Assembly: GCA_963845665.1 (NCBI GenBank)
Contig: CAWJTA010000002.1
Span: 2,211,388 to 2,275,387, forward strand
Origin: an uncultured Verrucomicrobiae bacterium
GTDB lineage: Bacteria > Verrucomicrobiota > Verrucomicrobiia > Limisphaerales > UBA11358
DNA length: 64,000 nt
Direction of reading: 5' to 3'
Shown here: positions 30,661 through 60,810 of the stretch, piece after piece
How the letters are laid out: each line of letters opens with the position of its first letter
Numbering within the stretch: position 1 is the first letter of the stretch
Notes under the pieces: generated by a model
What the model saw: only the letters and a program-made list of their open reading frames with translations
Told to the model about the DNA's origin: nothing
Database searches by the model: none
Program-made: the position numbers and the translations under genes

Positions 30661-32784
30661 TTAAAGCCCCACTGCCGCATTCTGGCTAAAGCAATTGGTC
30701 GTTTTCCACAGTTGCCAGTCGTTGGTGATGGTCGCAGCGGAATCGGTGGAAACGTTTGGGGTGGCCGGCCAATTGGTTGGGTCGTACCAGCCCCAGCCAT
30801 CCGGAACCAGTCCATGGGTGGCCTTGTACGCCCACATGGTCCAACTGATTCCCGAAGTATTGTAGTCGTTGATTGAATACTGATAACAGTCTGCGCCCAG
30901 GCCCATGTCATTCCACTCGCCGACGTAATCCGGCACATTCCAGGAAACATGATTTGCAAAATCATCCACCTGGCCATCTGAACCGCCTTCGACCTGGGCG
31001 ACGTCGCCGCCATATTGGTATTCGTGCATTGAATAGACGACGTTGGTCCAGCCGTACGTGGATGGGTCCGGCAGCATACTCCAGTCCCAATTGATGAATG
31101 TTCCCTCCATGATGATGATGTGGTTCGTATCCACGGTGCGAATCGTATTGTAGAGGCTATTGTAAGCGGTCCAAACTTCGGCGGTATTGGTCGCGCCGAC
31201 TGGTTCGTTAATCAAATCGTATCCTGCCACCGTGTTGTTGGTCCGATAATGCGAAGCAATTTGCGACCACATGAAGGCCGTTTCACTTTGATCTGTGCTG
31301 CTGCTCCAGTAGGCGTTCAGGTTTTGCTGGCCTGTATCATCCGAAGTGCTTTGGCTGCCGACGACGCCGTGCATGTCAATCACCACGTAAATGCCGTGGG
31401 CAGTACAATTGGTCACCACCCAGTCCAGCATCGTGAACGCGTCCGGACGCCATCCGGAACTGGTCGTATTGTTGATGGAAAAAAAGTTGCCCCACCAAAC
31501 GGGTACGCGCACGCAATTGAAACCTGCCTGGGCGATATTGTTCAGGTCGGCTGTGGTGATCCAATACGATTGATAATCCCGAATGAGCGTCTGCTCGATA
31601 GCCACGCCGAAACGGCTGTCCAACTCCTTGATAATACTGTACGTGTCAGGCAAACCGCCGCTGTCTGCCGGACACATCCAGGGCTCCATTACGAAATACC
31701 CGCCCAGGTTAAGTCCCGTCAACGTCACAGGCTGGCCATAAGCATTGACAATGGTCGTGCCGCTGGCGCTCAAACGAGTCAGCGGCGGAGCGTTCGTTGA
31801 CATTTGGACGCGATAAAATCGGCTGGCGCCGGCCGGCAGGCCGTTCACCATCTGGACTGAGCCATTGCCCGAAACCGGATTGCCGAGGGAAATCCAGGCC
31901 GGTTCGCTCAGGTTCGTTTTGTATTGCACCTGAAAGTTAAATCCCTTTTGTGTGGGAAATGAGATGATCTGGTTGGTAATCGCGCTCAAACTTGTAATCA
32001 CGAGTGGCTGCGCGAGTTGGATTTGAAATCCATTAATGTCGCCCTCCGCGCTGCCGTTTCCCGTGTAGGTTATGGACAGCGTTCCCGTTCCATCCGACCA
32101 TGCTGCCGGGAAATAGACGTAGTCTATTCCAGGAATAAGCGTGCTGCAGGTCCCGGTCCACGTACTGCTCAACGTGTTGCTATTGACAGTGAAATACGTC
32201 GTGCGTCCATTCGCGCTGGTATTGGCGCCGTTATATAGTGCGAGGTTATAGGCCGTATTTGGCGCCAGGCCGGAAAGCGTGATGGTTTGCGAAACGCCGT
32301 TATTGTAGAGGTAATCTTCCATCAGAGCTGTGTTGGCGCCGCCGGCAAAAGGAGTCGTGCCTCCATAATCAAAAACGTTGTATCCGCCGCCGGAGCTAAA
32401 CACCATTTTGACCGGCGAGACTGTGCCGTCCGAATAAATGAGAGAAATCCCGGTACCGCTGCTGCTGCTGATTCCGTTCCATTGATCGCCCGCCGAGCCC
32501 AGGACCGCCGCCCCGTTCATCGTTGGGCCGGGACTAGGGCCGCCTCCGCCGGCGCTACTGTTCTGGGTGAAATTCACGTCGATTAATTTGGCGTGAAGCG
32601 CGAAGGGGAGGGCCATTACCGTTGCCGCGAACAGAACGCAGAGTGCGGACGCATTGGAGCGTTGAAGCGTTGAAACGTGTTGCGTGTTGCGTGTTGCGTC
32701 AAGAATGACTGAATGTCGTTGTGCGATACTTGACGCGCCACGCGCCACGTACCACGCAATCCGCATTCCGAAAAGTCTTCGCAT
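30661..32784 (-). CDS. Multi-domain GH5 glycoside hydrolase: N1 module, FYRVQ module and GH5 catalytic domain
   Basis: GH5 motifs are GLNLGGYFVMEPWM, NCVRVPVWW, VVIDMHG, DLINEP (acid/base) and YVGEWN (nucleophile). The N-terminal 190 aa are homologous to the N-terminus of 41019..43975. RFYRVQMS is internal. Confidence 0.88.
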   Translation of the reverse strand: MRRLFGMRIAWYVARGASSIAQRHSVILDATRNTQHVSTLQRSNASALCVLFAATVMALPFALHAKLIDVNFTQNSSAGGGGPSPGPTMNGAAVLGSAGDQWNGISSSSGTGISLIYSDGTVSPVKMVFSSGGGYNVFDYGGTTPFAGGANTALMEDYLYNNGVSQTITLSGLAPNTAYNLALYNGANTSANGRTTYFTVNSNTLSSTWTGTCSTLIPGIDYVYFPAAWSDGTGTLSITYTGNGSAEGDINGFQIQLAQPLVITSLSAITNQIISFPTQKGFNFQVQYKTNLSEPAWISLGNPVSGNGSVQMVNGLPAGASRFYRVQMSTNAPPLTRLSASGTTIVNAYGQPVTLTGLNLGGYFVMEPWMCPADSGGLPDTYSIIKELDSRFGVAIEQTLIRDYQSYWITTADLNNIAQAGFNCVRVPVWWGNFFSINNTTSSGWRPDAFTMLDWVVTNCTAHGIYVVIDMHGVVGSQSTSDDTGQQNLNAYWSSSTDQSETAFMWSQIASHYRTNNTVAGYDLINEPVGATNTAEVWTAYNSLYNTIRTVDTNHIIIMEGTFINWDWSMLPDPSTYGWTNVVYSMHEYQYGGDVAQVEGGSDGQVDDFANHVSWNVPDYVGEWNDMGLGADCYQYSINDYNTSGISWTMWAYKATHGLVPDGWGWYDPTNWPATPNVSTDSAATITNDWQLWKTTNCFSQNAAVGL
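32659..32700. repeat. GTTGAAGCG/GTTGCGT word array inside the predicted N-terminal leader of the GH5 gene
   Basis: gcgttgaagcgttgaaacgtgttgcgtgttgcgtgttgcgtc is translated as ..TRNTQHVSTLQRSNA upstream of the hydrophobic signal core. Confidence 0.8.
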
Positions 32785-32822
32785 GTCGCCTGAAATCTGA
32801 ATTTTAAAGGATCAGCATCCAA

Positions 32823-33995
32823 TCACGCGGGAAATCGTTCCGGCAGCCAGCCCCGCTCGACGCAATATCGAAAATTCCAGGCGCCCTCCGCTTTCATCTT
32901 GTAGCTCCAGAAAAACCAGCCGCGGCTATTTTCAAAACTCAACAGTTGCGCGTCCGCATACGCGCCCGTCACCAGTTCCTCCTGAAAGGACGATAAATCG
33001 CGGGTAGACGGATAAGGCAGGGCCAGCGACCATTCGCCCACAAGCGTTGGAAGTTCCTCCCGTTGCATTTGCTCCAGCGTGCTCTTGCGGTTGAGCGCAA
33101 AAATCAACTGTTCCTGCGCGCTGCGTTGCGCATCTTCCTCGCCAAACGACTGATAAAGATGCGTGTCAATGATGACGTTCGAATACTGCGGTTGTTTCAT
33201 GAAATTCTGCCAGGCCATGGCGCGAAAAGAATCATGAAATATAACTGCCACTTCCATGCCTGCATGTTTACGGATTTCCGAGTATGCATTCTCATAGAAT
33301 TCCTTGAGAGTGGCAATCGGAATCTTCCAAATCGGTTCATTCAACAGTTCGATGCCGTAGAGCGCCGGATGTTTCCCATATCGTTGGGCAAAGGCGCCAA
33401 GGATACGAACCGTTTCGTTGATATTGTTTGGGTCCGTGTGCCAGCCAACGTCACCGGCGCGTCCGCTGTGGTCCCAGCCATTCTGGCTCCCGGGCGCGCC
33501 GTGCAAATCCAGGACCAGTTTCAAATCGTTGCGCAGAGCCTGTTCCAGCGCAAAATCTACGAAATCCGCCGCCGGTACGAAAGGTTTGGGCGCTTCCAGC
33601 GTCCAATAACCCACCGGCAACCGCACCGCATTGAGACCGCAATTCCGTATCCACCGGAAATCGTCTTCTGTGATAAATGTCTCCCGATGTCCCTGAAGAC
33701 GCGAACGCGCCCGATCGCCCAGGGCCAGACACAGGCTGTATTCATCGCCCGCGTCGGTGTCTCGATAGACGTCGGGCACCATCCATTTTTCAAGGACAAG
33801 CCATCCACCGAGATTGACTCCGCGCAAAACAGAAGAATTGTCCGGTTGCTCCGAATTGGTTGCGGAGGCGGGCTTTTGCGCGGCGCTTTGATTTGTTTGG
33901 GCCAACGCTGTGCCCGGTACCCGGACGGTTGCCAGCGCCAGCGCGCTGCCAACGGCATTTTGAATAAATTTTCTGCGGTCAATCATATCTATCAC
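32823..33995 (-). CDS. GH5 family beta-glucanase (exo-1,3-beta-glucanase-like) with a twin-arginine signal
   Basis: [17 protein letters not shown] is a Tat motif. GH5 motifs are [42 protein letters not shown] and VGEWS. The GTG start overlaps the pseudopilin stop (GTGA). An alternative ATG lies at 33986. Confidence 0.88.
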
Positions 33996-34933
33996 TGGAT
34001 CGGAGCTGTGGACACCGAATTAAGCCATGCCAAATCTCCACACCCGGGCTGGGCCAGCACATTGTCCGTATTGCCAGTGGGCGAAGTCGGTCTTTCGTTG
34101 ATCATTGAACCATCCGTCCAACGCCGGGGCTCCGAATGACCGTCAGCGTAGGAAAATTGACTGGAGCGCCCGTGCAACACCGCCGGACTATTAACCCAGC
34201 TTGTCGTTTCCGAGGGATTAACAGCAAAAAAGCCGTCGTCAATGCTGTAGGGGCATTCTTCAACAAAGACAAAAATCTTGCTCGGGCCCGGGTGGGTCAT
34301 GTTCGGCAGCCTGGTATAAATATAGTAACCAGTGGTAGGACCCCCGTTCCACGGCGTGGAAAGATAACCCGGCGCATCCATCGGCTGAACCCAATCATTC
34401 ATCGAATAGGTGCGCATCGCTGGAGCGGTGAAAGCCGTGGCGCCACGGGGAACTGTGGTGAGGTCAGCCGGACACTTGTATATACTGACGTTATTGACAT
34501 ACGGATAGAGCAAACCGGCCATGATCCACCAGCTTTGGACGCTGCCCCCCAGATATTTGGTGCCCGGGGTGGTGTCTGCGGCGGTCTGCATATTGCCCGG
34601 ACACCAATCGGCGTTTGCTCCTCCGGGCTGCAGTGACGGTTCAATCCGGGGATCTCCGCTGTAATTGACCCCGCTGGCGCCGTTCAGACCACGGTTGGGC
34701 ACAAGATTATCCTGATTGTCATTGGCATACATCAGCCACGCCAATGACAACTGATGCTCATTGTTCAGGCACCGGATTGCCTGGGCCCTCTTCTGCGCCT
34801 GGGCCAGCACCGGCAGCAATATCCCCGCCAGAATGGCGATGATGGCAATCACCACTAATAGTTCGATTAGCGTGAAAGCGCGACGGTTTCCGCCCAATTT
34901 TGAACCCAAATTCGATCCAGTTTTCATCCGCAT
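33992..34933 (-). CDS. Prepilin-type H-X9-DG (DUF1559-like) pseudopilin
   Basis: [27 protein letters not shown], and [13 protein letters not shown]. It is about 75% identical by eye to 44118..45029. Confidence 0.9.
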
Positions 34934-34953
34934 TAACTTTAACCCTTCATTGC

Positions 34954-37782
34954 TTACTGAGCTTGTACCCGGTAAAACCGTTTCACTCCGTTGCTCGTGC
35001 TGTCGGTGACCGTCTCAACGGCGCCATTACCGGTTACGCTGGTCAAAGTCTGCCAATTGGCTGCGTTCAAACTGGTGCTGTAATACACTGTATAACTATG
35101 GCCGCTTTGGGTCGGGAATTGAATCGAAACGGTTGTGCCACTGACCGAAGCGCTGGCACGGAACAGCGATGCCGCCGCATAGGGCGTAAACATGTAGAAG
35201 TGGCCATTGATGCTCCCTGCGGCCAGGCCTGACGGAGCGGTCACCTGGAGCGTTTCAACCCCACCCATGGAAAGCGTCACCGGTTGGCCATTGGCGCCGG
35301 TCAACGGTACCCAGTGCCAGGATTGGAACCCGTTGGCGTTGGGATCGGCAAAATTGCCCAGCAGTTGGGTAGTTTGACTGGTCGTTCCCTGTCCCGCCGT
35401 CACCAGACTCACGGTCGTATTGGTATATGGCGTTGAGCTCGCCAGACGGCCCCAGATACGATAGGTATTTGTCGGGAAGGTGCGCGTGTAATTGAGCCAT
35501 GTCCCAGGCGTCCACCAGGCGACGTCATAGTCCACATTGGTCGCGGGAACGGACTCATCGGGAACATACTCGAAGGGCGGTTGAGCGCCGGGCCCCTCGT
35601 TATAGAACTTGTCACGCAGGAAGTCGGAGGTCACTTCCGTGCCGGCGGCGTCGGAAACCACCGAAACGTTCCCAGGGGTGTTGCCATCCACCCGGTAGAG
35701 GTACGTCTCCCCGGTAACATTGGTCGTGGTATAATCTATCCCGTACTCGGCTGAGTTGTCTGGGTCGCCTCCGGGGTAGTAGTAATAGCTGTTTGTAGCC
35801 GGAACGGCCGTTGCCGTTTGAATGGAATTATCAATCCATTGACCCCCATTGAAATCAAATTCGTCAGCTTCGACCATCAGGTTATTTTGGCTGAAGTTGT
35901 CAAACGTTTCGGTGTAAGTGTTGGAATGTCCCGCGGCATCGGTCGCCGTAATGGTCGCCGTATAAACGCCCTGTTGCGAAAGGGGAAGGCCCAACCACCA
36001 ATTGGTCGAGTTGCCGCTGATGCTCAATTGGGATGAGACATTAACCCCGTTGAGCGTGACGTGGATATTGTTTTGGTTGACGGTACTGATAGCGGTCGTC
36101 ACGCCAAAGGTCAATTCGTTGGTCGTTTCAAAAGGCTGCAAACCATCGGGATAAACGTTGACGATGGCCGGCGGAGTATTGCTGCCGGGCACCAGCATAA
36201 AGAAATTCGCGTTGATGCCTCCGCCTAAAGGCCCGGAGGTGACGCGCAGCGTCGTCTGCCCGTTTAACTTAACCGCCAGCAAATTTCCCCATGGGTCCGT
36301 CAAGGGCACGAAATTAAAACTATTCCAGCCGCGCGCGGTAAACTGGAACATTCCCAATTGCGTTAGCGTCTGGTTTGTCGTGCCCTGGCCGCTGGTCACC
36401 ACCGAGAGAGCGGAATTGGCCAGCCCGCCGTTTCCGTTGGCTAGCCGTCCATAAATATTGTACGTGCCCGCCGGGTACGTGTGCGTATAATTCACCCAGT
36501 TGCCCGGATTAAAATATCCAATCAGATAGTCTGGAATGCCTGCAGCTACGAATTGGGCGCGCGGCGTATCTCCCGCCCCGGTGATGGATACTTCATCGTT
36601 CGTCCGCCAAAGGTGCGGCTGATTTGTGGGGTTAAAATTGGGCACGTATTCATCGACATTCGTCAGCCCCACAGTGTTGTAATAGCTTTGCGCGCTGTTG
36701 AGAGAAAGCACCGGATTATCAATGAATTGGCCGCCGTTAAAGTCAAAGTCCTCCGCCTCCCAGGTGAAATTGTTTGTGCTGAATGTGTCAAACAGCAGCG
36801 GAGCGCTCGTTCCCTCGCCGGCTTCGTTGGTAACGGTGATTTCGCCGGTATAGTTTAGGTTTGGCTGAAGATTCGTGTACGAAACGCTCACGTTCTCCGT
36901 GCCCGCGCCCGAGACGACGAGATTGCTGGAAACGTTTACGCCATTCAAAATCAGTTGAACCCCCTTTGCAACGACGGGAGACGACGGAGAATTAACAGTG
37001 AAACTCAGCTTATTGGTTGCATTGAATAGGGCCGTATTATCGTTGAGCGAAATATTGTTGATGGCCAATTCGGGCGCGACGGTCAGATTATTGAAAGCCA
37101 TGTCGCTGCCGTTGCCCGCGCCGAAGTTAAAAACGTCTATGCCAACCAATTGGCCACTGAACGTCCCGCTCCAACTGTCCGAACCGCACACGGCGGAATA
37201 GGTGTTGGTGCCGGTGATGGTGAACGAGATGTTGAACTCACTTTGATATTGATATCCCATGCTCCCGGCGCTCACATCCGTAGAGCCGGCGTCGCTGTAA
37301 AAATAGCCATTGCCCGTGTAGGGATAGCTGGAATTAGGCTCGCCACCGAAGATTCCAAAAGTAACGGCGTAGCCGGAGCTATTGAGCAGGCTGACGCCGA
37401 CATCTCGGCCAGGATCTACGGCGCGCATTTCGAAATTAACCGAAACCGTTTGACCGACGCTTAATGAGCCGCCGGCAAAAATATTGCTGGCTTCAATAAA
37501 GCCGCCGTCACCTGTAGAGAGGGTGTTCGGAGAACTCCAGATTTGCCATCCGGATAGGGTTTCGCCGCTAAAGGCCGTGCCATAATATGCCCCGGAAATG
37601 CCGCCACCCGTGACACCCGGATTCTGGGCAATCGTCCAGACGTTCACCGGATTGTTGTTTTGGTCCGAGCCATCCGGTTGGCTGCCCGGAGTGGCGGTTG
37701 CAGTATATGAAAAGGTATTGGACGCGGAGGCCACTCTTACGGCACACGTCACGGCAATCAGAATTGAGAGGATTCGTTTCAT
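34954..37782 (-). CDS. Large secreted scaffold-like protein A: unique N-terminal domain, two (Ig-like plus CBM6/35-like) units, and a C-terminal FYRVQ module
   Basis: Signal peptide [20 protein letters not shown]. The unit ..[37 protein letters not shown]...N.FML and its variant [31 protein letters not shown] resemble sugar-binding beta-sandwiches. It ends KRFYRVQAQ. Confidence 0.85.
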
Positions 37783-38075
37783 TCGGTTTTGTTTCGGTTC
37801 AATCAAACACAATATTGCTGTATAAGGACGGCGGCTAATGCTGCCATCATCTCATACTGTCGCCGTAGCCGCACCACTCTTTTGGGTAGGTGCCTGAGCA
37901 GCAGGCTTTTTACAGGCTTATTCCGGGTCAAAATTGCCGCTAAAACATTGAGATTTCCCGAAAACATGCAACCAACGGATTTTTCAATAATAGATAAGCC
38001 CACTCGAAAGGGTGGGGCGCCATTATCAGGGCTTTCGGTACGGAAAATTTCCCGCCATTGACTTAAATCCAAAAA

Positions 38076-40298: not shown

Positions 40299-40927
40299 TC
40301 GAAGTAGGCATCGTCGAGGATAATAAGACCCTGCGTGAGGGTTTTGAAACCCTGCTCAACCGCACGCCGGGCTTCAAATGCGTCTGCACTTGCGCGACGG
40401 TGGCGGAGGCGCTGAAAAAAATTCCAAAGGCCGCCCCGAATGTGGTGCTCATGGATATTCAATTGCCGGACGCGACCGGCGTGGAGTGCACCGCAAAAAT
40501 CAAGGAGATGATGCCAAAACTCCAAATCGTCATCGTAACGGTGTATGAGGATTCGGATAGAATTTTCCAGGCCCTCCGGGCAGGTGCCTGCGGCTATCTG
40601 CTAAAGCGGGCGCGACCGGAAAAAATCATTGCCGCGATCCAGGAGGCGCACGAAGGCGGCGTGCCGATGACACCGGAAATAGCACGTAAGGTTATCGGCC
40701 AATTCCGTCAGCAGGCGGCGACGGCGTCGCAAGTGGAGGACTTGACTGATCGCGAACGGGAAGTTTTGGCCCTCGTCATGCGCGGCCACGGCAATAAGGA
40801 GATTGCCGAGCAACTGGGCGTGACGGTGGCGGCAGTGAAATGGCATCTGCAGCACATCTACGAGAAGCTGCACGTTCATTCGCGGACGGAGGCGGCGTTG
40901 AAATTTAAGGGCGGATATTCCAGGTAA
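40295..40927 (+). CDS. NarL/LuxR-family response regulator
   Basis: The REC domain has VVLMDIQLPD and the C-terminal LuxR HTH is LTDREREVLALVMRGHGNKEIAEQLGVTVAAVKWHL. An ATGA overlap joins it to the kinase stop. Confidence 0.92.
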   Translation: MIEVGIVEDNKTLREGFETLLNRTPGFKCVCTCATVAEALKKIPKAAPNVVLMDIQLPDATGVECTAKIKEMMPKLQIVIVTVYEDSDRIFQALRAGACGYLLKRARPEKIIAAIQEAHEGGVPMTPEIARKVIGQFRQQAATASQVEDLTDREREVLALVMRGHGNKEIAEQLGVTVAAVKWHLQHIYEKLHVHSRTEAALKFKGGYSR

Positions 40928-51053: not shown

Positions 51054-51648
51054 TGACCATTACGTTGTCCGGATGGGCCTGATCGCCATGGTCAACCTTG
51101 AACCGGACATGGAAGTGGTTGCCGAGGCTACCGATGGAAATCAGGCCTGCGCTTTGTTCAAGCGATGGAACCCGGACCTGACATTGCTGGACGTGCGAAT
51201 GCCCGAGAAAAACGGAATCGAAACCATCATCGAAATTCGGCGCCAAAACAATAACGCGCGCATTTTGATGTTATCGGCTTTGGACGGAGACGAGGACATC
51301 CATAAGGCGATCGAGGCTGGTGCGGCGGGCTATGTCTTCAAAGATTCCACCGACGAAAAGCTGCTGCCGGCGATACGAGCGGTGGCATCCGGCCAGCGTT
51401 GGATTCCCGAGGAAGTGGCCAAACGGCTCGAATCCCGGCGGTTATTTGAAGAACTCACGCCGCGCGAATTATTGATCCTCAACGAAGTGGTGAAAGGATT
51501 GGCGAACAAACAAATCGCGGACGTTCTAAATATCAGTGAGAACACCGTGAAATGGCACCTCAAAAATATTTTGGGAAAACTGTGCGTCGCCGATCGTGCG
51601 GAAGCGGTTGCAGTGGCGATTCAACGGGGGATAATTCATTTGAATTAG
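51001..51648 (+). CDS. NarL/LuxR-family response regulator
   Basis: REC domain (ILIADDHYVVRMGL, DLTLLDVRMPE) plus LuxR HTH (LTPRELLILNEVVKGLANKQIADVLNISENTVKWHL). It overlaps the kinase 3' end by 53 nt. Confidence 0.9.
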   Translation: MNKPTTKKTSPIRILIADDHYVVRMGLIAMVNLEPDMEVVAEATDGNQACALFKRWNPDLTLLDVRMPEKNGIETIIEIRRQNNNARILMLSALDGDEDIHKAIEAGAAGYVFKDSTDEKLLPAIRAVASGQRWIPEEVAKRLESRRLFEELTPRELLILNEVVKGLANKQIADVLNISENTVKWHLKNILGKLCVADRAEAVAVAIQRGIIHLN

Positions 51649-51799: not shown

Positions 51800-51945
51800 G
51801 GGGTTCAACGATTTCGATTTTGAAATCGTGCATCCCCAGCCTTGAACCGAAGGTGGCAGGGACTGCGCCCAGCGCTGTCACCGCCCGTTAAGCGGGACAG
51901 TTCGCACGTACTCGTCCGATGATCGACGGTCCATGGAAAGAGCCG
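51800..51945. repeat. ~140-nt dispersed element, second copy
   Basis: Colinear with 12775-12915. Confidence 0.75.
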
Positions 51946-52869: not shown

Positions 52870-52974
52870 TGCTTATGCACGACCAGGGAAACTGAACGAG
52901 GATGTACAAAGCCAGGATACCGGACTCATTGGCTAATATCCATCGTCGCTCCGCAACAAAGAAGGACGACACTA

Positions 52975-55317
52975 TCAATTATTAAATTCAAACGCATCCA
53001 ACGCCGGCAACGCGTGGCCCTCAAAATCAAATAGCGTTGTATTATCCACAACATTCGCCTGGCCCAATTCCCATCCTTCGCCAGGCACACAAATAAATAT
53101 CGGGTCCCAATACAAGTCACCGAGGCACTCGCCGGAATTAACCAGTTTGATGGCGTTAAAACAGTTGAGCATGAACTCTTTCTGTCCGAGCTGTGTGCTC
53201 GGAAATGGCTCGGGGCCGTCATTGCTCAATTGGCCGGGGTAACCGTCGCACAGGTTCGTGCTCCAGTTATAGCCGGTTTCCATGACCAGGACCGGTTTAT
53301 TGTAGGTGGAATAGATGGTGTCGATTTGGTCCCGCGCCTGTTCTGCGGTCAAACTAGTCCAAAACGGATAGTATGAGCAACCGGTAATGTCCCACGGAAC
53401 GCCATCGGTGCGCGCCTGGTTCAGAAAATAAGTCACGGTGCCGGCGCTCACGGTGTTCATGTGCAGAATAACTTGCGTGGACGGAGAAATGGCTTTGACT
53501 CCGGCATACCCAATCTTGAGAAGTTGGGACAGTTGCGGCCAATTGGTTGTGCTGCCGAAGGGGAGCAAAACGCCACTGGTATTGATTTCGTTGCCTAGCG
53601 AAACGTATTGGGGCGTTGTGCCCTGGGCCTGCATCTCTGACATGAAATTGGTTGTGAAGTTATAGACGTCGTTCGTGAGTTGGGCAAAGGAATCGTTCGT
53701 CCATGCCCGGGGGACGTTGTTGGCCCAGCCGTCGGCGTAATAAAACGTCAGTTCGATTTCCAGGCCCAGCGCCTGTGCCTGGCGCGCCAGGTCCAGAATA
53801 TTTGTCGGACTCTGAATACCCACCGGCAAATCGCTGTTGGCGGGACTGGGATTGTTGTACAAACGCAAGCGGACAATGTTGCATCCGTGATTCTTCAAAA
53901 TTTGCAGGCACGGCGTGGCTAGACCATTGGTTTCGTAATACACGCCGCCGCCCTGTTCCACGTAGGTCAATTCGGAAACATCACCGCCTTTCAAAAGGTG
54001 ATAGGGCACATCGTCCTTGATCAGTTGGACCTGGTCTGCCTGGCACCAATCGCCGCCGTTCCCGTCGCTCGAGTTGACCGACACCAGGCATTGGCCGTTG
54101 GTCACATTGATTCCTCGTACAATGATATTGGTCCATTCGGCGGAGATCGGAAGGCTCGTCATGCTGCCGTTTCCGCTGAGGTAACACGCATTCTGTCCGC
54201 CGCTGTTTTTGACCATGGCGGTGAGCTTGTAATAGCCGTTGGGCAAATCGGTGACAAGTTGGGACGTCTGAGCCTGATAGGGCGACGAATTGCTTTGGAG
54301 CAGGGAGTACGAACCGGAAAAGGCGCCGCCGGCGACGAGCGATACCGCTGAGACGGTGCCCGAAGTAATCCAGTACGCTGCCAAATTGTTCGACTCAAAA
54401 TCTCCGTCCTGCAATGCGCTCATGGGAAAGGCCGCAAGTCGGTAGAATGTGCTCGCGGAATTTACGGGCACGGTCAGTGATGTCTGCCCGGAAGTGACGA
54501 AACTATTCTGCCACGTTCCATCCACGGAATTGCTTGCGCTTTGAAGGCAGACATTCAGGGCGCCGGGCCATGAAAGCGTCACTTCGCCGTTAGACACGGA
54601 ACGGACCGATAGACTGCAGGTGCTTGAGCCGGTAATTGTGAAATTATCGAAATTGAACGTTCCGCCACTTCCCGTGTGAACGAAAACCAATCCGGCACCG
54701 GTGATATTGCCGGCCAGATTGCTCGAAATCAGCGTGCCGATGACCGCGTGGGTTCCGGTGCCATTGCCGCTGACGGTCAACGAATCCCACTGCGATGCGT
54801 TCGGGTTAAAGGCCAGGGAATAAGTTGCGAATGGGCCCGTGGACGATGGAACGGGCAGGGGACTCGCCGAAACAAACCAATTGCCGCCATTGATTTGCAC
54901 GGCGAACCTCGCGGTGATATTGGCAGGGTTCTGAGACGGTTGAATATCGACCGATAGAGTGATTCCGGAATAAAGAGCAGGGTTAATGGCGGGGAATGCC
55001 GCTCCGCCCGTTTGTGTCAGGGCGATGGAAGTATAAAAAGCCGTCGTAGCGGCCGCCGCTTCGTAAGCGTACACCGCGCCATCACCGCCGGTCGCCTGAT
55101 AGAGGCGATCTGGGCCATCCGGAATATCATTGGCCCAGCTGACGGAGTTGACCGGCAGATCCCCGCTTATAGCGCCATACGGAAATGTCTCACGATACAG
55201 CACAACGTTTTGGGCGGAGCAGAGGCTGAAGATGCAGGATAGGAGGTAAAAAGTGGAAGATAGCAGGTAGAAGATGGAAGATGGAATGAACCGTCGCGTC
55301 GCCGTGGAGTGCGGCAT
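52975..55317 (-). CDS. Multi-domain GH53 endo-beta-1,4-galactanase: N2 module, FYRL module, CBM4/9-like module and GH53 catalytic domain
   Basis: The signal peptide follows the ATG at 55317. GH53 motifs are CNIVRLRLYNNP, FYYADGWAN, YVSLGNEIN, GCSYYPFW and VLVMETGYNW. Residues upstream of 55317 in the track ORF translate a REP element. Confidence 0.87.
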   Translation of the reverse strand: MPHSTATRRFIPSSIFYLLSSTFYLLSCIFSLCSAQNVVLYRETFPYGAISGDLPVNSVSWANDIPDGPDRLYQATGGDGAVYAYEAAAATTAFYTSIALTQTGGAAFPAINPALYSGITLSVDIQPSQNPANITARFAVQINGGNWFVSASPLPVPSSTGPFATYSLAFNPNASQWDSLTVSGNGTGTHAVIGTLISSNLAGNITGAGLVFVHTGSGGTFNFDNFTITGSSTCSLSVRSVSNGEVTLSWPGALNVCLQSASNSVDGTWQNSFVTSGQTSLTVPVNSASTFYRLAAFPMSALQDGDFESNNLAAYWITSGTVSAVSLVAGGAFSGSYSLLQSNSSPYQAQTSQLVTDLPNGYYKLTAMVKNSGGQNACYLSGNGSMTSLPISAEWTNIIVRGINVTNGQCLVSVNSSDGNGGDWCQADQVQLIKDDVPYHLLKGGDVSELTYVEQGGGVYYETNGLATPCLQILKNHGCNIVRLRLYNNPSPANSDLPVGIQSPTNILDLARQAQALGLEIELTFYYADGWANNVPRAWTNDSFAQLTNDVYNFTTNFMSEMQAQGTTPQYVSLGNEINTSGVLLPFGSTTNWPQLSQLLKIGYAGVKAISPSTQVILHMNTVSAGTVTYFLNQARTDGVPWDITGCSYYPFWTSLTAEQARDQIDTIYSTYNKPVLVMETGYNWSTNLCDGYPGQLSNDGPEPFPSTQLGQKEFMLNCFNAIKLVNSGECLGDLYWDPIFICVPGEGWELGQANVVDNTTLFDFEGHALPALDAFEFNN

Positions 55318-55325
55318 TGTAGCGC

Positions 55326-55430
55326 GGGTTTCCAAACCTGCTGTATCGCCGATTTCCAAATTGGCAGATCGCGCGACTTTGTGCGACCGGCAGGTTTGGA
55401 AACCTGCGATACAGCAGACTTGGAAGTCTG
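55326..55430. repeat. REP-like element with nested inverted repeats
   Basis: ggtttccaaacctgc (55327-55341) pairs with gcaggtttggaaacc (55390-55404). A terminal palindrome cagacttggaagtctg lies at 55414-55430. Confidence 0.8.
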
Positions 55431-55432
55431 CG

Positions 55433-56746
55433 CTACCGTTCATGCGATTTGGACGATTGAGTTGAATTGGCGGTCAAATTAAGCGGGCCGGCAAGTTGTC
55501 CCAATTTGTCCGCAACCGGCAACAGATTGCCATTTTCATCAAAGAATGATCGTGTTCCCACGCCTGCTTCATTGGCGTTTGGCCATTCGTATTCCGCGCC
55601 CCACCAGAATATCCCGGCGCCCAAATTATTCGGAGCGCTTTTCATGATGCGACCGAGCAGGCTGACAAATTGGACCTGTCCGTCGGTCGAGGCCGGGAGA
55701 TTAAAAATATTCGTGGAATAAATTCGTGGCAAATCGGTTTCGGCAATGATCATCGGCCGCCCATATCGTTGCACGGCATTGGTGACGCAGGCGATCAGAT
55801 TGGCGGGCGGGCCGTGGTAGAAAGGATAATAACTTTCTCCGATGATATCGTAAGGAACCCCCTGGCGATTTAAATGGTCAAAGAACCATTTGGTGGCATT
55901 CCAATCGCCGCCGCGGTCGATATGAACAACGATTTTTGGCATGTTCGGGCCGGCCGCATCCTTGATTCCCTGGATTGCCGACTTCATCAACTGGCCGAAC
56001 CGTGACCACTCTTTGTCGGGATTCCAGCCTGACAGCCGGCCATAAGGCCACATCATGCCTGCGGTGATTTCGTTGCCCACCTGTACGTAGTCGGGCATCG
56101 CGCCAGCCGCCATAAACGCGGCAATGCAATTACTGTTATAATCGCGCATTTGGCTGACTAACTGCGGAAAGGTGAGATTGGTCCATGTGCAAGGGGCGGC
56201 CTGGTGGCCCGGGTCGGCCCAGGTATCGGAATAGTGGAAATCGATCATCAATTGCATCCCGGCGTTTTTTACGCGCACAGCTAGAGGCACCGTATATGTG
56301 AGATTGTTGATGTAGTCATACGGATCGGCCTGGGCTTCTTCCGGGCTGCTGGTGAACAGCCGCAGACGAACGCAATTGATGCCGTGTTTTTTCAGGATGC
56401 CTATCGCGTCGCCCGGCTGGCCATGGTCTTTATAGACGATACCGTTGGTTTCGAAATAGGCCAGAAGGGACAGGTCCGCGCCGGCGATAAAATGAGTTTG
56501 CGCGAGCGCCGTTCCGCTAAAAAGCGCCATGCCCGCGGCGAGCAATAGAGAAGTAAGGAGTGATGGGCAGGGACGGCGCGCTGCGCCGTCAGCGCCGCGT
56601 CCAGCGGCGCAATGCTCGGAGTCGGACGTAATACTGCGGATCGTTCCGCCCGCTTTACGGGTGGGGACGGCGGTGGCGGCGCCACTGGACATGCGCGCCG
56701 TCCCTACCTGCTCCAAAAACGATCGAATGCGGATTGCTATCTTCAC
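55433..56746 (-). CDS. GH53 arabinogalactan endo-beta-1,4-galactanase. The true start is probably near 56530-56560.
   Basis: Motifs are GADLSLLAYFETNGIVYKD, GINCVRLRLF, IDFHYSDTWADPGHQ, VQVGNEI, GESYYPFYHG and IIAETD. The first ~65 codons of the track ORF translate the REP pair at 56566-56710. Confidence 0.87.
   Translation of the reverse strand: MKIAIRIRSFLEQVGTARMSSGAATAVPTRKAGGTIRSITSDSEHCAAGRGADGAARRPCPSLLTSLLLAAGMALFSGTALAQTHFIAGADLSLLAYFETNGIVYKDHGQPGDAIGILKKHGINCVRLRLFTSSPEEAQADPYDYINNLTYTVPLAVRVKNAGMQLMIDFHYSDTWADPGHQAAPCTWTNLTFPQLVSQMRDYNSNCIAAFMAAGAMPDYVQVGNEITAGMMWPYGRLSGWNPDKEWSRFGQLMKSAIQGIKDAAGPNMPKIVVHIDRGGDWNATKWFFDHLNRQGVPYDIIGESYYPFYHGPPANLIACVTNAVQRYGRPMIIAETDLPRIYSTNIFNLPASTDGQVQFVSLLGRIMKSAPNNLGAGIFWWGAEYEWPNANEAGVGTRSFFDENGNLLPVADKLGQLAGPLNLTANSTQSSKSHER
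56566..56710. repeat. Inverted pair of GTAGGGACGGCGCG-family elements
   Basis: The pair runs from gggcagggacggcgcgctgcgccgtc.. to ..gacatgcgcgccgtccctacc. Confidence 0.8.
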
Positions 56747-56763
56747 CGGTCACTTCATCCCTA

Positions 56764-59463
56764 TCAAGGCGTCTTCAGACGGAAGAACCGTTGCGGGCCG
56801 GTCGTCGGTACCGGCTGCGAATAGAGGCCGTAAGTGCTGGGCCAATTTTGCCAGCCCGTGCCCTTGTTGAGGTTAGTCGAAAATTGCAGGTCGACAGCCG
56901 GATTGCCAACCCATGTCAAATTCACGGAACCGCCCGACAATGGGCCTTCATTGACGTAGCCCGGTCCGGTCCCGGTAACTGTGAAGTTGGCGAAGTCAAA
57001 CGTGCCACCACTGCCTACTGTGACAAAGGCGATGCCGGCCGCAGTTATGACGCCGCCCAGCTTGCTGGTGGCAGGCGAACCGATGAGGCCGCCGCTGCTG
57101 GTGACTACGAGGTTTTTCCAGTTCGCGGCCGCCGTGCTAAATGGAATCGTATAGGTTGAAAATGTGGAGCTGTCCACGCTCGTCGGCACCGGAATCGGGG
57201 TGGCCATGACGTATCCGTTACTGTTGTCGATTTGAATGGCCAGATAAGCCGTCACGTTGCTGGATTGGTAGTCTGGCGCGATATCCACTGAAAAAGTCAA
57301 ATTGGGATAATTCACGTTGATGTTGGGGAACGGCAAGCCAGCCTGGTTGGTGTCAGTGCTCGAGCTGGCATAATAGACGGCTGTGCTTGGGCTGCCCGAA
57401 TAAGCGAAGACAGCTCCCTGGCTTGAATTTGCATTTACTTGATACAGCGCATTCGGCGCGTTGGGAACCGCCTCCGTCCACCCAACGCTGCTGATGGGGT
57501 AATTGCCCGCAACCGGGCCAACGAACGGAAATTCCTCCGAATAGATGAAACCGACTTGCTCATTCGTCACGGTCAACTGTGCCGCAGGATAGGTGCTGTC
57601 GCTTTCATCGAAGCCGGCGGCATTGGTCACATAAGCAACGACGCTTATGCCGTTGTCACCCGCGTTGAGATTGGCCAGGGTCAAGGTGGCAGTGTTGGCG
57701 CCAAATACGCCGGGGCCGTTTTGGACCTGGATACCGTTGGTCTTCCAATAATAACCAAAGGGCGGTGTTCCCGACGCTGTGGCTACACCGAAACTGGCGC
57801 CGCCGCCAGAAGGCACTGCGACGCTGAGCGGAATATTGACCCCAATCACAGGCGCCTGGCCGACCGCCGAGTTGGTGATAATTTCGAAATCCTGGAAGTT
57901 CATATCTGAACCGCTGCCATCATTGTGCGCAACGATGAGGCCCGCGCCGGTGATGTCGCCGGTCAGCGGACCTGAGGCTGGAGCTCCGATAATGGCGCTG
58001 GTGCCGGTAAAGGTGAGGGTATTCCAGTTTGCCGCTGCGGGGTTAAATCCGTAATTGTAGGTTTGATATGGGCTCAGGGCCGCAAGGTCTATCGATTGGG
58101 GCTTTGCGGAGCAATACCACGTTCCGCTCATGTCCACGGCCCAATAGACCGAGACAGCGCCGGAAACCTGGCCAGCGGCGTTGCCCGGCACAAAGCCTGC
58201 CTGGAATGTGATGGCTGGATAATTTGCCGGGTTAATATCCAGGAATGGCAATCCCGAATAACCAATATCATTGGTGTCGGTTGTATAATAGGCATTGGTT
58301 ACGGCTGAGCCTGAATAGTCAAAGCAGTCGCCGAGACCGGGGCCCGCCTGGTAAATTCCGAAGGACCCGGAGGCTGAAGTGAGCCATCCCACGCCGGTGA
58401 TGGAAATATTCCCATTGGGGCCTACGTACGGAAAATCTTCAGCATACAAAACGCCGGCCGGAACCGCGCTGACATTCAAACTTAAGTTTGCATTGGTGGC
58501 GCTACCGCCCGCGTTCGTGACGATTACCGAATAAGTCGCCGAGGCATCGGACATGGTGAGATTGGAGATGGTCAGTTCATTGGCGCCGGCCCCGATAAAG
58601 CGTGGATCGCTTCCGATGGGCACGCCGTTGGTTTCCCAAATATAGGTGAGAGGCGGAGTCCCGGCAGCTTCAACGAGAAACGAAGCTCCGCCGGTGACAA
58701 ACGAATATTGCGGAGTGATTGCGGGCGCGGTAATGGACGCGGGTATGATCGTTGAATTTCCGGGAGTAACTGCGGTAATAGTCAGTTTATTATAATCGGC
58801 GCCGTTGGCCGTGGGCAGTTCAACGATACCGATGCCGGTGATGGGCGAGGTTAAATTGGGTGTCGCGACCGCGCCGATAGATACGCTGGTGGAACTGAGA
58901 GCTAATTGCTGCCACACATTGGCTGAATTCGTATAAATCAGCGTCACATTGGTGAATTGATAATACGAGAGTAACGTGTTATACGGCAGCGGGAAGGACG
59001 TGGCCGCATACCATGAGCCGCCCACCTGGACGGCAAAATAGTTTGTATCACCGGCGTTGGCGTCGGTGATCTCCACATTGAGGGCTAAATTGGTGTAATG
59101 CGACGGGTTGATATCGGTGAAGGACGAATCGCCGCCGGAGCCGCCGCCTGAAGCGTCGGTCGTGTAGAACATTCCTGGCGCCGTCTGGTTGGGACGCAAT
59201 ACGGTGAAATAAACCGTGTTGATAGGCAACGCGATCCCGTTTGTCGGGTCATTCGCGCCAGTGTTCTGGTAAATGCCCAGGTAAGGCCCTGCCGTTTGTG
59301 ATACGGCGATACCGGTCCAGCCCACAGTACCGATGTTGCCGTTACCCGTGACGGAACTGGTTCCATTGGTTGAGCCCCAATCTTCAATATAAACGTATTG
59401 CGTGCCCGCCAGCATGGTAAATGTGGCGCCGAAAAAAACGGCCAGCGATAATAGTTTTTTCAT
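56764..59463 (-). CDS. Large secreted scaffold-like protein C: three copies of the ~195-aa N2 module separated by two Ig-like domains, and a C-terminal FFRLK module
   Basis: Signal peptide MKKLLSLAVFFGATFTMLAG. N2 copies are at aa 23-229, 338-528 and 638-829 (LYAEDFPYVGPNGNISITGVGW.. / IYSEEFPFVGPVAGNYPISSVGW.. ..GSGGTFDFANFTV). An I-set-like Ig segment is TPPLTYIWETNG..ELTISNLTMSDASATYSVIVTNAGGS. It ends QRFFRLKTP. Confidence 0.87.
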   Translation of the reverse strand: MKKLLSLAVFFGATFTMLAGTQYVYIEDWGSTNGTSSVTGNGNIGTVGWTGIAVSQTAGPYLGIYQNTGANDPTNGIALPINTVYFTVLRPNQTAPGMFYTTDASGGGSGGDSSFTDINPSHYTNLALNVEITDANAGDTNYFAVQVGGSWYAATSFPLPYNTLLSYYQFTNVTLIYTNSANVWQQLALSSTSVSIGAVATPNLTSPITGIGIVELPTANGADYNKLTITAVTPGNSTIIPASITAPAITPQYSFVTGGASFLVEAAGTPPLTYIWETNGVPIGSDPRFIGAGANELTISNLTMSDASATYSVIVTNAGGSATNANLSLNVSAVPAGVLYAEDFPYVGPNGNISITGVGWLTSASGSFGIYQAGPGLGDCFDYSGSAVTNAYYTTDTNDIGYSGLPFLDINPANYPAITFQAGFVPGNAAGQVSGAVSVYWAVDMSGTWYCSAKPQSIDLAALSPYQTYNYGFNPAAANWNTLTFTGTSAIIGAPASGPLTGDITGAGLIVAHNDGSGSDMNFQDFEIITNSAVGQAPVIGVNIPLSVAVPSGGGASFGVATASGTPPFGYYWKTNGIQVQNGPGVFGANTATLTLANLNAGDNGISVVAYVTNAAGFDESDSTYPAAQLTVTNEQVGFIYSEEFPFVGPVAGNYPISSVGWTEAVPNAPNALYQVNANSSQGAVFAYSGSPSTAVYYASSSTDTNQAGLPFPNINVNYPNLTFSVDIAPDYQSSNVTAYLAIQIDNSNGYVMATPIPVPTSVDSSTFSTYTIPFSTAAANWKNLVVTSSGGLIGSPATSKLGGVITAAGIAFVTVGSGGTFDFANFTVTGTGPGYVNEGPLSGGSVNLTWVGNPAVDLQFSTNLNKGTGWQNWPSTYGLYSQPVPTTGPQRFFRLKTP

Positions 59464-59546
59464 ATGTGAGCCTGTGTTTGGTCGGATCTGATTGTTTATC
59501 TAATTGTCAAAGAGGATGAACCTGAAAAAGTCTCGTTTGGTCGCTT

Positions 59547-59677
59547 GCGTCCTGGAGTGCGGTGGCAAGCGAAGCGCGGCACCGCTTTCGAACGGCGACT
59601 ATTTTGGGGAGTGGGCTGGTCTTTCGAACGTCATTTGATTTTCCAAAAGCGGTGTCACGGCCACCGCACTCCAGGAC
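59547..59677. repeat. MITE/REP-like element with perfect 18-nt terminal inverted repeats
   Basis: gtcctggagtgcggtggc (59549-59566) pairs with gccaccgcactccaggac (59660-59677). The left arm belongs to the family seen at 25237-25282. Confidence 0.85.
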
Positions 59678-59829
59678 CTTGCGGCGGTTCAAACGGTTTA
59701 TGGAGAATCTCAAGGATCCCGAAATTGCGCATTCGATCTGCGAACGTTGCGCCGTTGAACGGCGCTGACGGCGTAGCGCGCCGTCCCTACCACTGGTCAT
59801 CGAGAGCGACAACAAATTCATCGGGTTTT

Positions 59830-60810
59830 TTAGTTATACGAGAGCAGCCAGCTTGGCCAGAGGACGGATTTGGGCGGTACCCAATTTTTGCTCCAGGGCA
59901 ATTGCCACAGTTGCCTCAAGCCAACCGAACTGGCCGAGCCATCAACGAACACCATGTCTTCCGGTGTTCGGCTTTGATGGCGCGGTATACAAAAACACGG
60001 CATCGTGGCATTCACCTGGCAAGTGCCGGAGGCCGTCGGGGGCGCGTCCGCCGGGGTTGGATTGGTACCCTGCCATACGCAATCGCCGAATAACGGCGCG
60101 TTTGCGAACCGTCCCGCGATGGTCAATTTCCTCCAGTAATTGGTTGCGACCGGGTCGCCCGCATCCTCCGCGGGCGTCGGGTTGGCCATCCACCCGTTGA
60201 AGCCATAGCTGCCCGCCATCCCGGCCCGGCCCCATACGGATGTTCCGCCTGAGGGCGTCATGCTCGAGCCTATGGTGTAACCATTGGTGGCCATAATTCC
60301 CCAGGGCACGTAGGTGATCCCGGTAGTGATCCAAAAGTTGGGAAGCGAGCTGCGCACCGGGTTCACCGCCGTGGGACAGAAACACATTGTTCCGCCGATG
60401 TTGCAATTGGGAATGTACGGCTGCAACGAGACCATCCACATGCCATTGGGGTCATACCATCCGGTCGGCATGCTGTCATTGTTGTCATTGCCATACACTT
60501 GAAAGCCCAAGCCCCATTGACGGAGATTCGAGATGCACGCGATTTTGAGTGCATGCTTCTGGGCGCTCCCCAGAACCGGCAACAGAAGCGCCGCAAGAAT
60601 GGCGATGATGGCGATGACGACTAAAAGTTCGATCAGTGTGAAACCCCGCTTTGCGGGCGTCGTTGAAACGTTAAAAGGTTGAAACGTTGAAACGGGTTCC
60701 CTTTCCGGTCCCAATGGTGGAGCTTTGGCCTGTGGCGCTGCCACTGCAAACCGCTTTTCGTTATGGACATACCGCCGGCTCATGCCCATGGGAAGTCCGT
60801 TAAAGTTCAT
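59830..60810 (-). CDS. Prepilin-type pseudopilin related to the H-X9-DG family but with a variant C-terminal motif and a long leader
   Basis: [27 protein letters not shown]. The C-terminal region HQSRTPEDMVFVDGS is H, eleven residues, DG, with no following His. The 50-60-aa leader contains STFQPFNVSTT, encoded by a GTTGAAACG repeat. Confidence 0.82.
   Translation of the reverse strand: MNFNGLPMGMSRRYVHNEKRFAVAAPQAKAPPLGPEREPVSTFQPFNVSTTPAKRGFTLIELLVVIAIIAILAALLLPVLGSAQKHALKIACISNLRQWGLGFQVYGNDNNDSMPTGWYDPNGMWMVSLQPYIPNCNIGGTMCFCPTAVNPVRSSLPNFWITTGITYVPWGIMATNGYTIGSSMTPSGGTSVWGRAGMAGSYGFNGWMANPTPAEDAGDPVATNYWRKLTIAGRFANAPLFGDCVWQGTNPTPADAPPTASGTCQVNATMPCFCIPRHQSRTPEDMVFVDGSASSVGLRQLWQLPWSKNWVPPKSVLWPSWLLSYN
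60659..60696. repeat. 38-nt GTTGAAACG element, copy 1 (inside the pseudopilin leader)
   Basis: The sequence is gtcgttgaaacgttaaaaggttgaaacgttgaaacggg. Confidence 0.85.

Follow-up and report, generated by a model that had tools for sequence, protein, structure and literature searches.

Four genes for prepilin-type proteins related to the DUF1559/H-X9-DG superfamily each adjoin a gene for a large secreted protein in the window, that is, in the whole 64,000-nt stretch of contig CAWJTA010000002.1 of an uncultured Verrucomicrobiae bacterium (Limisphaerales; Verrucomicrobiota 'subdivision 3') that was analysed. As judged by sequence comparison between species, this linkage of a pilin-like protein (hereafter pilin) with a large protein is real and old, and it involves at least three unrelated large-protein families, each with its own pilin subfamily. 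The map of the 64-kb window is based on an open reading frame (ORF) listing and on Pfam and NCBIfam scans. The ORF listing confirmed the four same-strand pairs given in the preliminary description of this DNA, and the gaps within them measured 98, 20, 142, and 366 nt, short but for one, as had been described. The pairs (units 1 to 4, large proteins big1 to big4, pilins pil1 to pil4) and a fifth pilin are as follows:

big1, 844..4218, plus strand: 1124 aa, Sec signal; no Pfam, NCBIfam, or PDB match; partner of pil1, in a non-glycan context
pil1, 4317..5294, plus strand: prepilin-type protein with H-X9-DG; cleavage motif at 4410
big2, 34954..37812, minus strand: Sec signal, ATG at 37782; two CBM6-like modules, Ig-like spacers, C-terminal FN3-like '...RFYRVQAQ' domain
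pil2, 33992..34933, minus strand: prepilin-type H-X9-DG protein, 20 nt downstream of big2
big3, 41019..43975, plus strand: paralogue of big2; two frameshifts at ~43370 and ~43560; N-terminal module common with GH5a
pil3, 44118..45029, plus strand: prepilin-type H-X9-DG protein
big4, 56764..59463, minus strand: 899 aa, Sec signal; three modules of the GH53a type, Ig (I-set) domains, C-terminal '...RFFRLKTP' domain
pil4-big4 spacer, 59464..59829: 366 nt with dispersed palindromic repeats similar to repetitive extragenic palindromic (REP) elements
pil4, 59830..60810, minus strand: divergent prepilin-type protein with RH-X11-DGS; cleavage motif at 60645
pil5, ~25500..26348, plus strand: fifth H-X9-DG/DUF1559 prepilin gene, unpaired; rplT-like ORF next to it

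The four pairs had been described as the same unit occurring four times, which is not correct at the level of homology. According to all-against-all BLASTP, only big2 and big3 (41% identity) and pil2 and pil3 (71%) are paralogous, and big1 and big4 are similar neither to big2/big3 nor to each other. Pil1 and pil5 share about 33% identity with pil2/pil3, and pil4 is similar in the N-terminal helix only. The pil5 gene was found by motif scan and has an opposite-strand TPR gene and the rplT-like ORF as neighbours, with no large protein adjoining. When strand is ignored, the permutation probability that all four large proteins of the window stand next to one of its five pilins is about 0.001. Two gene limits of the preliminary description need revision. 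The ATG at 60810 is doubted as the start of pil4, because the N-terminal extension is not conserved among orthologues, and translation probably starts well downstream. Likewise, big3 is not an intact ORF to 43975; the called ORF stops at 43688, and the two frameshifts have to be read through.

The big2 family was studied in 78 loci, one genome per species, in which six-frame ORFs were scored with a pilin hidden Markov model (HMM) and a big2-family HMM. The scored subset consists of the 65 big2-family genes for which 1.2 kb or more of downstream DNA was available, and the sampled loci, which are a biased sample, total 1.09 Mb. The big2 homologues are hypothetical proteins of Verrucomicrobiia/Limisphaerales metagenome-assembled genomes and of Pedosphaera, with one in Pedosphaera parvula Ellin514. 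A same-strand pilin ORF lies directly downstream of 40 of the 65 genes, in different species of Limisphaerales. Two further downstream pilins, missed through frameshift or overlap, were found by inspection, and five genes have the pilin directly upstream. Elsewhere in the 1.09 Mb, 25 more pilin ORFs give a background of 0.023 per kb. Pilins are thus enriched about 27-fold in the adjacent slot, which in these loci speaks against the high copy number of DUF1559 genes, named beforehand, as the explanation of the adjacency. The distance from the stop codon of the large-protein gene to the codon of the pilin cleavage-site residue has a median of 160 nt, which is compatible with a single transcript.

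A neighbour-joining tree of the big2 family has the pilin-downstream state across its whole span (35–88% identity). Absences of the pilin cluster in about four to five clades, where the gene was lost, and one clade has the pilin upstream. Pairwise distances of the large proteins correlate with those of the adjoining pilins (r = 0.62; the value was reached in 0 of 2000 Mantel permutations). The view that the linkage is non-random and ancient is thus borne out by adjacency conserved across species. Orthologues of GH5a, one of the glycoside hydrolase (GH) genes of the window listed below, follow big2 in about 20 loci, with or without a pilin between.

Two other partner families gave the same picture. 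A pil4-type gene is directly upstream of the big4-family gene in all 13 metagenomic loci (54–75% identity), most of which also hold GH53 genes and a kinase similar to HK2. The pil4-big4 gaps in these 13 loci are 0–90 nt, and because of this the 366-nt gap in the window is attributed to a local REP insertion. The REP element described for this gap was found as a palindromic element at 59761-59793 with dispersed copies elsewhere, and a second repeat is also present in the spacer. As for unit 1, three pil1 homologues (64–77% identity; loci L097-L099) each have a large-protein gene before them and, after them, the aminotransferase and aldehyde dehydrogenase genes that are also present in the window. 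The big1 orthologues in L098 and L099, of 1118–1147 aa, are directly upstream of the pil1 orthologues, and the series of two tandem big1-type genes, pilin, aminotransferase, and aldehyde dehydrogenase is syntenic in L098 (1-5931) and L099 (1-5919). The order is reversed in L069, where a big1 homologue follows the pilin. The window opens with the end of a second big1 paralogue, whose last 206 aa are encoded at 3-623.

The pair had been regarded as an element of glycan utilisation, and as a specific link this was not supported. Unit 1 adjoins the aminotransferase and aldehyde dehydrogenase genes, and in L083 (4387-8467) a pil2-like pilin, 72% identical to pil2, is located 26 nt after the gene for a 1032-aa PD40/TolB-like repeat protein. 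This protein ends with '...RFYRVVAE', and genes for threonine synthase and homoserine dehydrogenase are among the neighbours of its gene, without a glycoside hydrolase nearby. Since the PD40 protein and big1 are also paired with pilins, the role of the pilin seems to be tied to the large secreted protein and not to sugar.

All five pilins have a prepilin cleavage/methylation motif (G/A followed by F-x-x-x-E), E5, and a near-identical hydrophobic helix. They match PF07963 with 27–36 bits (cut-off 21.2) and TIGR02532 with 28–36 bits (cut-off 16.3). The pilin-family profile matches solved pilins and GspG through the N-terminal helix only. Also TIGR01710, the GspG equivalog model of 134 positions, gave 27.7–40.1 bits against a cut-off of 88.85, and only over model positions 1 to ~67, which correspond to the helix. 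By motif and helix, the pilins belong to the type IV pilin/pseudopilin superfamily, and they are not orthologues of GspG.

Assignment to the DUF1559/H-X9-DG family is less uniform. The four paired pilins had been called H-X9-DG pilins; all four carry the N_methyl domain and the motif is present in pil1-pil3, but pil4 and its orthologues carry RH-X11-DGS. The literal H-X9-DGH string is present in pil1, pil2, pil3, and pil5. TIGR04294 (cut-off 19 bits) recognised pil5 with 23.2 bits and gave no match to pil2 and pil4 even at E <= 10. PF07596 (gathering threshold 23.3 bits) recognised pil5 with 24.9 bits, over profile positions 2-38 only, and gave no match to pil1-4 at E <= 0.01; members of the pil2 family matched it weakly in 15 of 30 cases (best E = 6.9e-6). 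Pil2 and pil5 are 33% identical (E = 1e-25), from which homology to DUF1559 members follows by transitivity, and JGI and NCBI label the homologues as H-X9-DG proteins. The prepilin N-terminus, 'QC.NN..Q' after the helix, and the C-terminal H-X9-DG hairpin are common to the pilins and the DUF1559/H-X9-DG proteins of Planctomycetota, Verrucomicrobiota, and Lentisphaerota, but pil1-4 remain below the curated cut-offs, the pil4 family has H-X11-DGS, and pil5 passes both models. The pilins can be considered relatives, only partly formal members, of this family. It is enormous: a family profile search returned 212,763 representative clusters at E <= 1e-10.

The structure of pil2 was modelled in AlphaFold2 from a 150-sequence alignment including pil1- and pil5-type homologues, with pLDDT 90.1 and pTM 0.86; an earlier alignment of 30 close homologues had given pLDDT 45.6. 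The model has a helix at 22-72, then a long stretch that is mostly irregular, and four short strands (176-179, 221-226, 257-262, and 267-271), with H-X9-DG across the last two. No match was found when the model was compared in Foldseek with 350,542 PDB chains (best E-value 6.5), and no solute-binding protein was recovered. Judged from this model, the head of pil2 is unlike a solute-binding fold or any solved pilin head. A solute-binding, bindosome-like head, to which the Pfam name SBP_bac_10 could point, was rejected because the confident model had no PDB match.

Units 2 to 4 are situated in a 30-kb island (30.6–60.8 kb) together with these genes:

GH5a, 30661..32784, minus strand: ~220-aa N-terminal module (also in big3), internal FN3-like '...RFYRV' domain, GH5 catalytic domain
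GH5b, 32823..33995, minus strand: GH5 enzyme; twin-arginine-like signal (RRKFIQ)
HK1, 38076..40298, plus strand: histidine kinase, HisKA_3 and HATPase_c; N-terminal extracytoplasmic domain of ~480 aa without Pfam match
RR1, 40295..40927, plus strand: NarL/LuxR-type response regulator, REC and GerE
GH3 gene, 45078..48689, plus strand: Fn3-like, CBM6/35, and two F5/8 type C domains; C-terminal '...QFYRLKQNP' domain
HK2, 48801..51053, plus strand: paralogue of HK1, 27% identity over full length (HisKA_3, HATPase_c)
RR2, 51001..51648, plus strand: NarL/LuxR-type response regulator (REC and GerE)
GH53a, 52975..55443, minus strand: ~195-aa uncharacterised N-terminal module, FN3-like domain, GH53 catalytic domain
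GH53b, 55433..56746, minus strand: GH53 endo-beta-1,4-galactanase family enzyme

The earlier calls of GH5+GH5 (30661-33995), GH3 (45078-48689), and GH53+GH53 (52975-56746) were right according to Pfam, as was the placement of units 2-4 inside glycoside hydrolase operons with a NarL-type system nearby, an architecture that recurs in other species. The island seems to comprise three substrate-specific polysaccharide-degradation operons, big2-pil2-GH5b-GH5a, big3-pil3-GH3, and pil4-big4-GH53b-GH53a, with HK1/RR1 divergent from the big2 operon and HK2/RR2 placed after big3-pil3-GH3. The start of GH5a is probably nearer to 32640 than to the called ORF start. Intra-operon spacings are 20 nt between big2 and pil2, 48 nt between pil3 and GH3, and 17 nt between big4 and GH53b, and the start of GH5b overlaps the stop of pil2 by 4 nt, which suggests translational coupling. 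A terminator scan found no terminator-like sites inside the pair gaps; apart from these terminator-free gaps, promoter and terminator scans gave counts not above the shuffled expectation and are uninformative.

Both NarL-type two-component systems of the preliminary description were recovered, each with a HisKA_3/HATPase kinase and a REC-GerE regulator, and all four proteins scored above the Pfam cut-offs. The extracytoplasmic domains of HK1 and HK2 (~480 aa; 38076-39600 and 48801-50300) have sub-threshold OB-fold-like matches only. Kinases of this type are near 39 of 49 big2-family and 10 of 13 big4-family loci, and a role as glycan or oligosaccharide sensors of the operons is plausible for them. 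As had been claimed, no SusC/SusD, TonB-dependent receptor/plug, or ABC solute-binding Pfam match was found among ORFs of at least 150 aa in the island, nor did the Pfam/NCBIfam scans find ABC or other transporter genes in or near it.

All large partners start with a Sec-type signal peptide, as read from sequence. The GH5b signal is twin-arginine-like, in contrast to the Sec-type signals of GH3 and of the large proteins. The designation of the large proteins as beta-sandwich proteins has sequence support for big2/big3 (CBM6-like) and for one Ig domain of big4, but big1 has no assignable domain. A profile of the big2/3 family matched CBM6 of 2y8k/5la2 (E = 3.8e-4, positions 751-880), and many big2 homologues carry precomputed PF03422 (CBM_6) matches; big2 and big3 themselves gave no Pfam match at E <= 0.01. 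Their modules are predicted to be CBM6-like and to bind glycans. PDB and Pfam searches with big1, big3, and big4 returned nothing beyond the one Ig domain of big4.

Modules are shared between the large proteins and the enzymes encoded beside them. Residues 66-287 of GH5a (31920-32590) are 37% identical to residues 38-283 of big3 (41130-41870), which defines an uncharacterised module of ~220 aa. The ~195-aa module of GH53a (residues ~74-275; 54600-55230) is present in three copies in big4 (residues ~20-235, 330-535, and 628-835; 35–39% identity), has no Pfam or PDB match, and is a candidate for a new family of galactan-binding modules. The large proteins of units 2-4 look like non-catalytic arrays, and because their modules are shared with the neighbouring enzymes they are expected to be the cognate glycan binders. 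No module links big1 or the PD40 protein with glycans.

The large partners also end in an FN3-like '...FYR(V/L)' domain. A census of pilins near large proteins with this FYR domain had been proposed, but the way in which such a count is set up makes the big2 family dominate it. The domain was considered as a sorting or pilin-docking signal and rejected in this role, because it is internal in GH5a and GH53a and is kept in big2 orthologues with or without an adjoining pilin. It reads like an ordinary FN3-type spacer.

The explanation favoured here, put forward tentatively as a serious possibility rather than a probability, is that the pilins act as partner-specific subunits of a type II secretion system (T2SS) or type IV filament, each serving to secrete or tether the adjoining large protein. 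It starts from features that were observed directly: the anatomy of the genes, their conserved adjacency with co-divergence, an N-terminus and helix of pilin type, a head fold without match, and the modules common to large proteins and enzymes. Each operon encodes a large Sec-exported, non-catalytic protein of binding-type modules and, next to it, a dedicated prepilin-type protein of the DUF1559/H-X9-DG superfamily. The pilin would be cut by prepilin peptidase, and the N-terminal helix, which hardly varies (F1, E5, hydrophobic stretch), could then insert it into a pseudopilus or related type IV filament. The variable head of ~270 aa may recognise the adjacently encoded protein by physical contact and either hand it to a secretin for export through the outer membrane or hold it on a short surface fibre. 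These steps of processing, assembly, contact, and secretion or display are as tentative as the explanation that they make up. The large paralogous pilin family would then be a set of cargo- or partner-specific filament subunits, and glycan capture would be one use of a general module of a large secreted protein with a dedicated pilin. The extension to the whole family, in which the DUF1559/H-X9-DG proteins of Planctomycetota-Verrucomicrobiota-Chlamydiota (PVC) bacteria form a library of subunits, each paired with one giant secreted protein and all exported or displayed by one T2SS/type IV machine, is possible but doubtful.

Several results weigh against this explanation. Big2 runs straight into GH5, with no pilin, in the close orthologous operons (60–65% identity) of L008, L009, L011, L013, L014, L016, and L020, so the large protein can be made, and presumably exported, without a pilin encoded in cis. 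Co-divergence of large proteins and pilins can also come from shared inheritance of a linked locus without physical contact. Among pilins that are not beside a big2-family gene, a same-strand ORF of at least 800 aa adjoins only about 5 of 26 in the biased loci, which makes the generalisation that any protein of at least 800 aa goes beside any pilin weak. This number, together with the unpaired pil5, means that many members of the family must act differently or in trans. The enzymes of these operons have no pilin of their own, position -1 of the cleavage motif is Ala and not Gly in pil1 and pil2, and the Pfam/NCBIfam scans found no gene of type II secretion or type IV pilus machinery within the window.

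Other explanations account for parts of the same evidence. The pilin head could itself bind polysaccharides or oligosaccharides, so that the pilins would be substrate-specific lectin subunits of a retractile glycan-reeling fibre, in line with a proposal for planctomycete fibres, or would pass ligand on to the neighbouring sensor kinase, with the large protein merely co-regulated. The position of the pilins inside substrate-specific glycoside hydrolase operons with a sensor kinase nearby agrees with this, as does the large, cassette-variable head unlike solved folds, in which conserved D72, N73, D75, N80, E226, D233, H254, D264, and H266 could form a ligand or metal site; pseudopilins are also induced on alginate in an Opitutales isolate (PMC13274419). 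It is nevertheless unlikely, as the same pilin subfamilies pair with large proteins in the non-glycan contexts of unit 1 and L083, and pil2 and pil3, at 71% identity, stand beside GH5 enzymes and GH3, respectively. Furthermore, no resemblance to a CBM, lectin, or solute-binding fold was found, and the island has no transporter. Independence of glycan context speaks instead for a pilin that never enters a filament and stays helix-anchored in the inner membrane, its periplasmic head being a dedicated chaperone, maturation factor, or holdase for the large neighbour after Sec export. The pairing is tight and co-diverging and concerns the largest multi-domain protein of each operon and not the enzymes, and the head fold is unlike known pilin heads in Foldseek, all of which such a chaperone would explain. 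A plain anchor, however, does not need E5 and the whole helix to be strictly conserved, as they are in all paralogues and in 150 aligned homologues; this is expected for filament assembly, and the N-terminal profile matches assembled pilins and GspG. The chaperone is therefore given only a small chance.

That the two genes have no functional coupling, and that numerous mobile DUF1559/H-X9-DG genes hitch-hiked into highly expressed operons and were inherited along, would fit the size of the superfamily, with 68 paralogues in Planctopirus limnophila (PMC10632474) and 67 in Verruconatronum alginivorum (PMC13274419), the repeated loss of the pilin from orthologous operons, and the solitary pil5. 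It is very improbable in view of the enrichment at the directly adjoining same-strand slot, the pair kept in 13 of 13 big4 relatives and across large proteins only 35% identical with co-diverging pilins, the three to four unrelated large-protein families with a pilin subfamily each, and gaps that are short or overlapping. Hardly tenable at all is the idea, prompted by the Pfam name, that the pilins are bacterial counterparts of the archaeal bindosome, that is, solute-binding proteins with class III signals that feed an uptake system. Weak PF07596 matches of pil5 and of half of the pil2-family members, and sugar-degradation operons without an annotated binding protein, speak for it; it is largely refuted by the Foldseek result, by a pil2 model with a long helix and a mostly coil head with four short strands instead of a two-lobed alpha/beta fold, and by the absence of ABC or other transporter genes nearby.

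The T2SS pseudopilus contacts cargo with its tip. The pilins have, like T2SS pseudopilins and type IV pilins, a class III signal peptide, the G/A-FTLIE motif, E5, and a helix of ~50 residues followed by a small beta-sheet head, but the head is ~270 aa instead of the ~100 aa in GspG and has no structural match. Their genes, unlike those of T2SS pseudopilins, are single and scattered beside cargo-like genes without a gsp operon, and according to published counts dozens of paralogues exist per genome in other PVC bacteria. The archaeal bindosome consists of sugar-binding proteins with class III signal peptides, so prepilin-type signals on proteins of sugar-utilisation loci are a common feature, but the pil2 head is not a solute-binding fold and no ABC transporter is nearby. 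Streptococcus sanguinis PilB and PilC are reportedly modular minor type IV pilins that carry functional modules, and Caldicellulosiruptor is said to have a type IV pilus locus with tapirins beside cellulase genes. The concept of a filament presenting adhesive or glycan-binding modules, and of pilus genes linked to glycan-degradation loci, is the same. Unlike there, the putative module is here a separate product of ~900–1100 aa with no fusion, and no pilus assembly genes adjoin.

The pair had been proposed as a functional analogue of the core of a polysaccharide utilisation locus (PUL). Like PULs of Bacteroidota, the loci are substrate-specific operons with secreted GHs, a multi-module binder analogous to surface glycan-binding proteins (SGBP), and a dedicated envelope-spanning sensor system. 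They have no SusC-like TonB-dependent transporter, SusD, or other transporter, the binders have Sec type I signals and not lipoprotein signals, and nothing in PULs corresponds to the pilin, which orthologous loci can do without. The loci could thus be called PUL-like in logic, with a binder, enzymes, and a sensor per substrate, but they fail the SusC/D criterion; absence of SusC/D was right, and with no transporter in the island the rest of the proposal is only an analogy. The pilin is also no obligatory core in the manner of SusC/D, because it is absent from some orthologous operons.

The closest precedent, reported in 2026, is Verruconatronum alginivorum (Opitutales), in which alginate up-regulates the operon pgaptmp_000046-60 with its gene for a pulG-like pseudopilin, one of the 67 paralogues; a further pseudopilin belongs to three non-cluster proteins whose expression is raised on this substrate (PMC13274419). 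The authors mentioned the gene in passing and invoked only possible export of lyases by type II secretion (PMC13274419). Compared by description, both cases have a multi-copy pseudopilin gene inside a substrate-induced polysaccharide-degradation operon of Verrucomicrobiota, but gene order, substrate (alginate), and enzymes (PL families) differ, and no conserved big non-catalytic partner was described there. It is the sole precedent in the searched literature, which contained no paper tying H-X9-DG proteins to GH clusters and assigned no function or partner to the DUF1559/H-X9-DG family; two of the paralogues of P. limnophila are essential (PMC10632474). The presence of pseudopilin genes in verrucomicrobial polysaccharide operons had been noted before, once and in passing. 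New relative to this literature are the conserved family-specific pairing with large non-catalytic secreted proteins, its occurrence with more than one partner family, and a head fold without structural match.

In Planctomycetota, Verrucomicrobiota, and Lentisphaerota, few paralogous families are as large as that of the DUF1559/H-X9-DG pilin-like proteins, and the pairing gives it a first concrete, testable partner. The different pilin subfamilies each have a stable and specific link with a large-protein family of their own, and several of these links are found in GH operons with sensor kinases. The association is solid and makes the function of a huge orphan family testable; how the pilins act is an inference, and some orthologous operons do without the pilin. 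In soils, peat, and waters, Verrucomicrobiota are abundant among the degraders of polysaccharides from plants and algae, and the way in which they export and position binders and enzymes without SusC/D matters for carbon-cycle microbiology and for substrate prediction from genomes. If the doubtful extension to the whole family is true, the glycan loci would encode a fibre-based capture apparatus without SusC/D, an undescribed organisation of extracellular polysaccharide use.

Frameshifts are present not only in big3, but also split the class-III aminotransferase (5492-6753; near 5.8 kb) and aldehyde dehydrogenase (7064-8682; near 7.7 kb) genes downstream of pil1. The relatives L097-L099 have intact single genes for the aminotransferase (457 aa) and the aldehyde dehydrogenase (508–533 aa), and because of this the frameshifts, including those in big3, are considered either indel errors of the assembly or very recent pseudogenes.

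Dispersed repeats were recognised in the window. The GC-rich palindromic (REP-like) element GGTAGGGACGGCGCGCTGCGCCGTCACCGCC is intergenic and located at 8693-8723, 12827-12857, 51855-51885, 56566-56596, 59761-59793, and 61127-61174. Another palindrome, with arms of 54 nt, is situated where GH53b and GH53a join (55319-55436). Tandem GTTGAAAC octamers gave 16 matches with at most 3 mismatches in the window against 0.64 expected, at these sites:

GTTGAAAC octamers: 11955-11978, 27083-27206, 28910-28949, 32661-32676, 60662-60693, 61845-61876, 62003-62034

The octamers are just upstream of pil4, the likely start of GH5a, an esterase gene, and other genes, and when translated as '..VSTFQPFNVST..' they lengthen several ORF calls. 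A conserved operator was considered and rejected, because an exact copy is present in only 1 of 96 related loci (L007) and absent from the other 95, and for the same reason the octamers look like lineage-specific dispersed repeats.

Outside the island, a GH92 alpha-mannosidase-family gene (12978-15221, minus strand) and a DUF4855 gene (15343-16428) have no adjoining pilin or large partner, and a gene for MdoG-type periplasmic glucan biosynthesis is located at 17690-19288.

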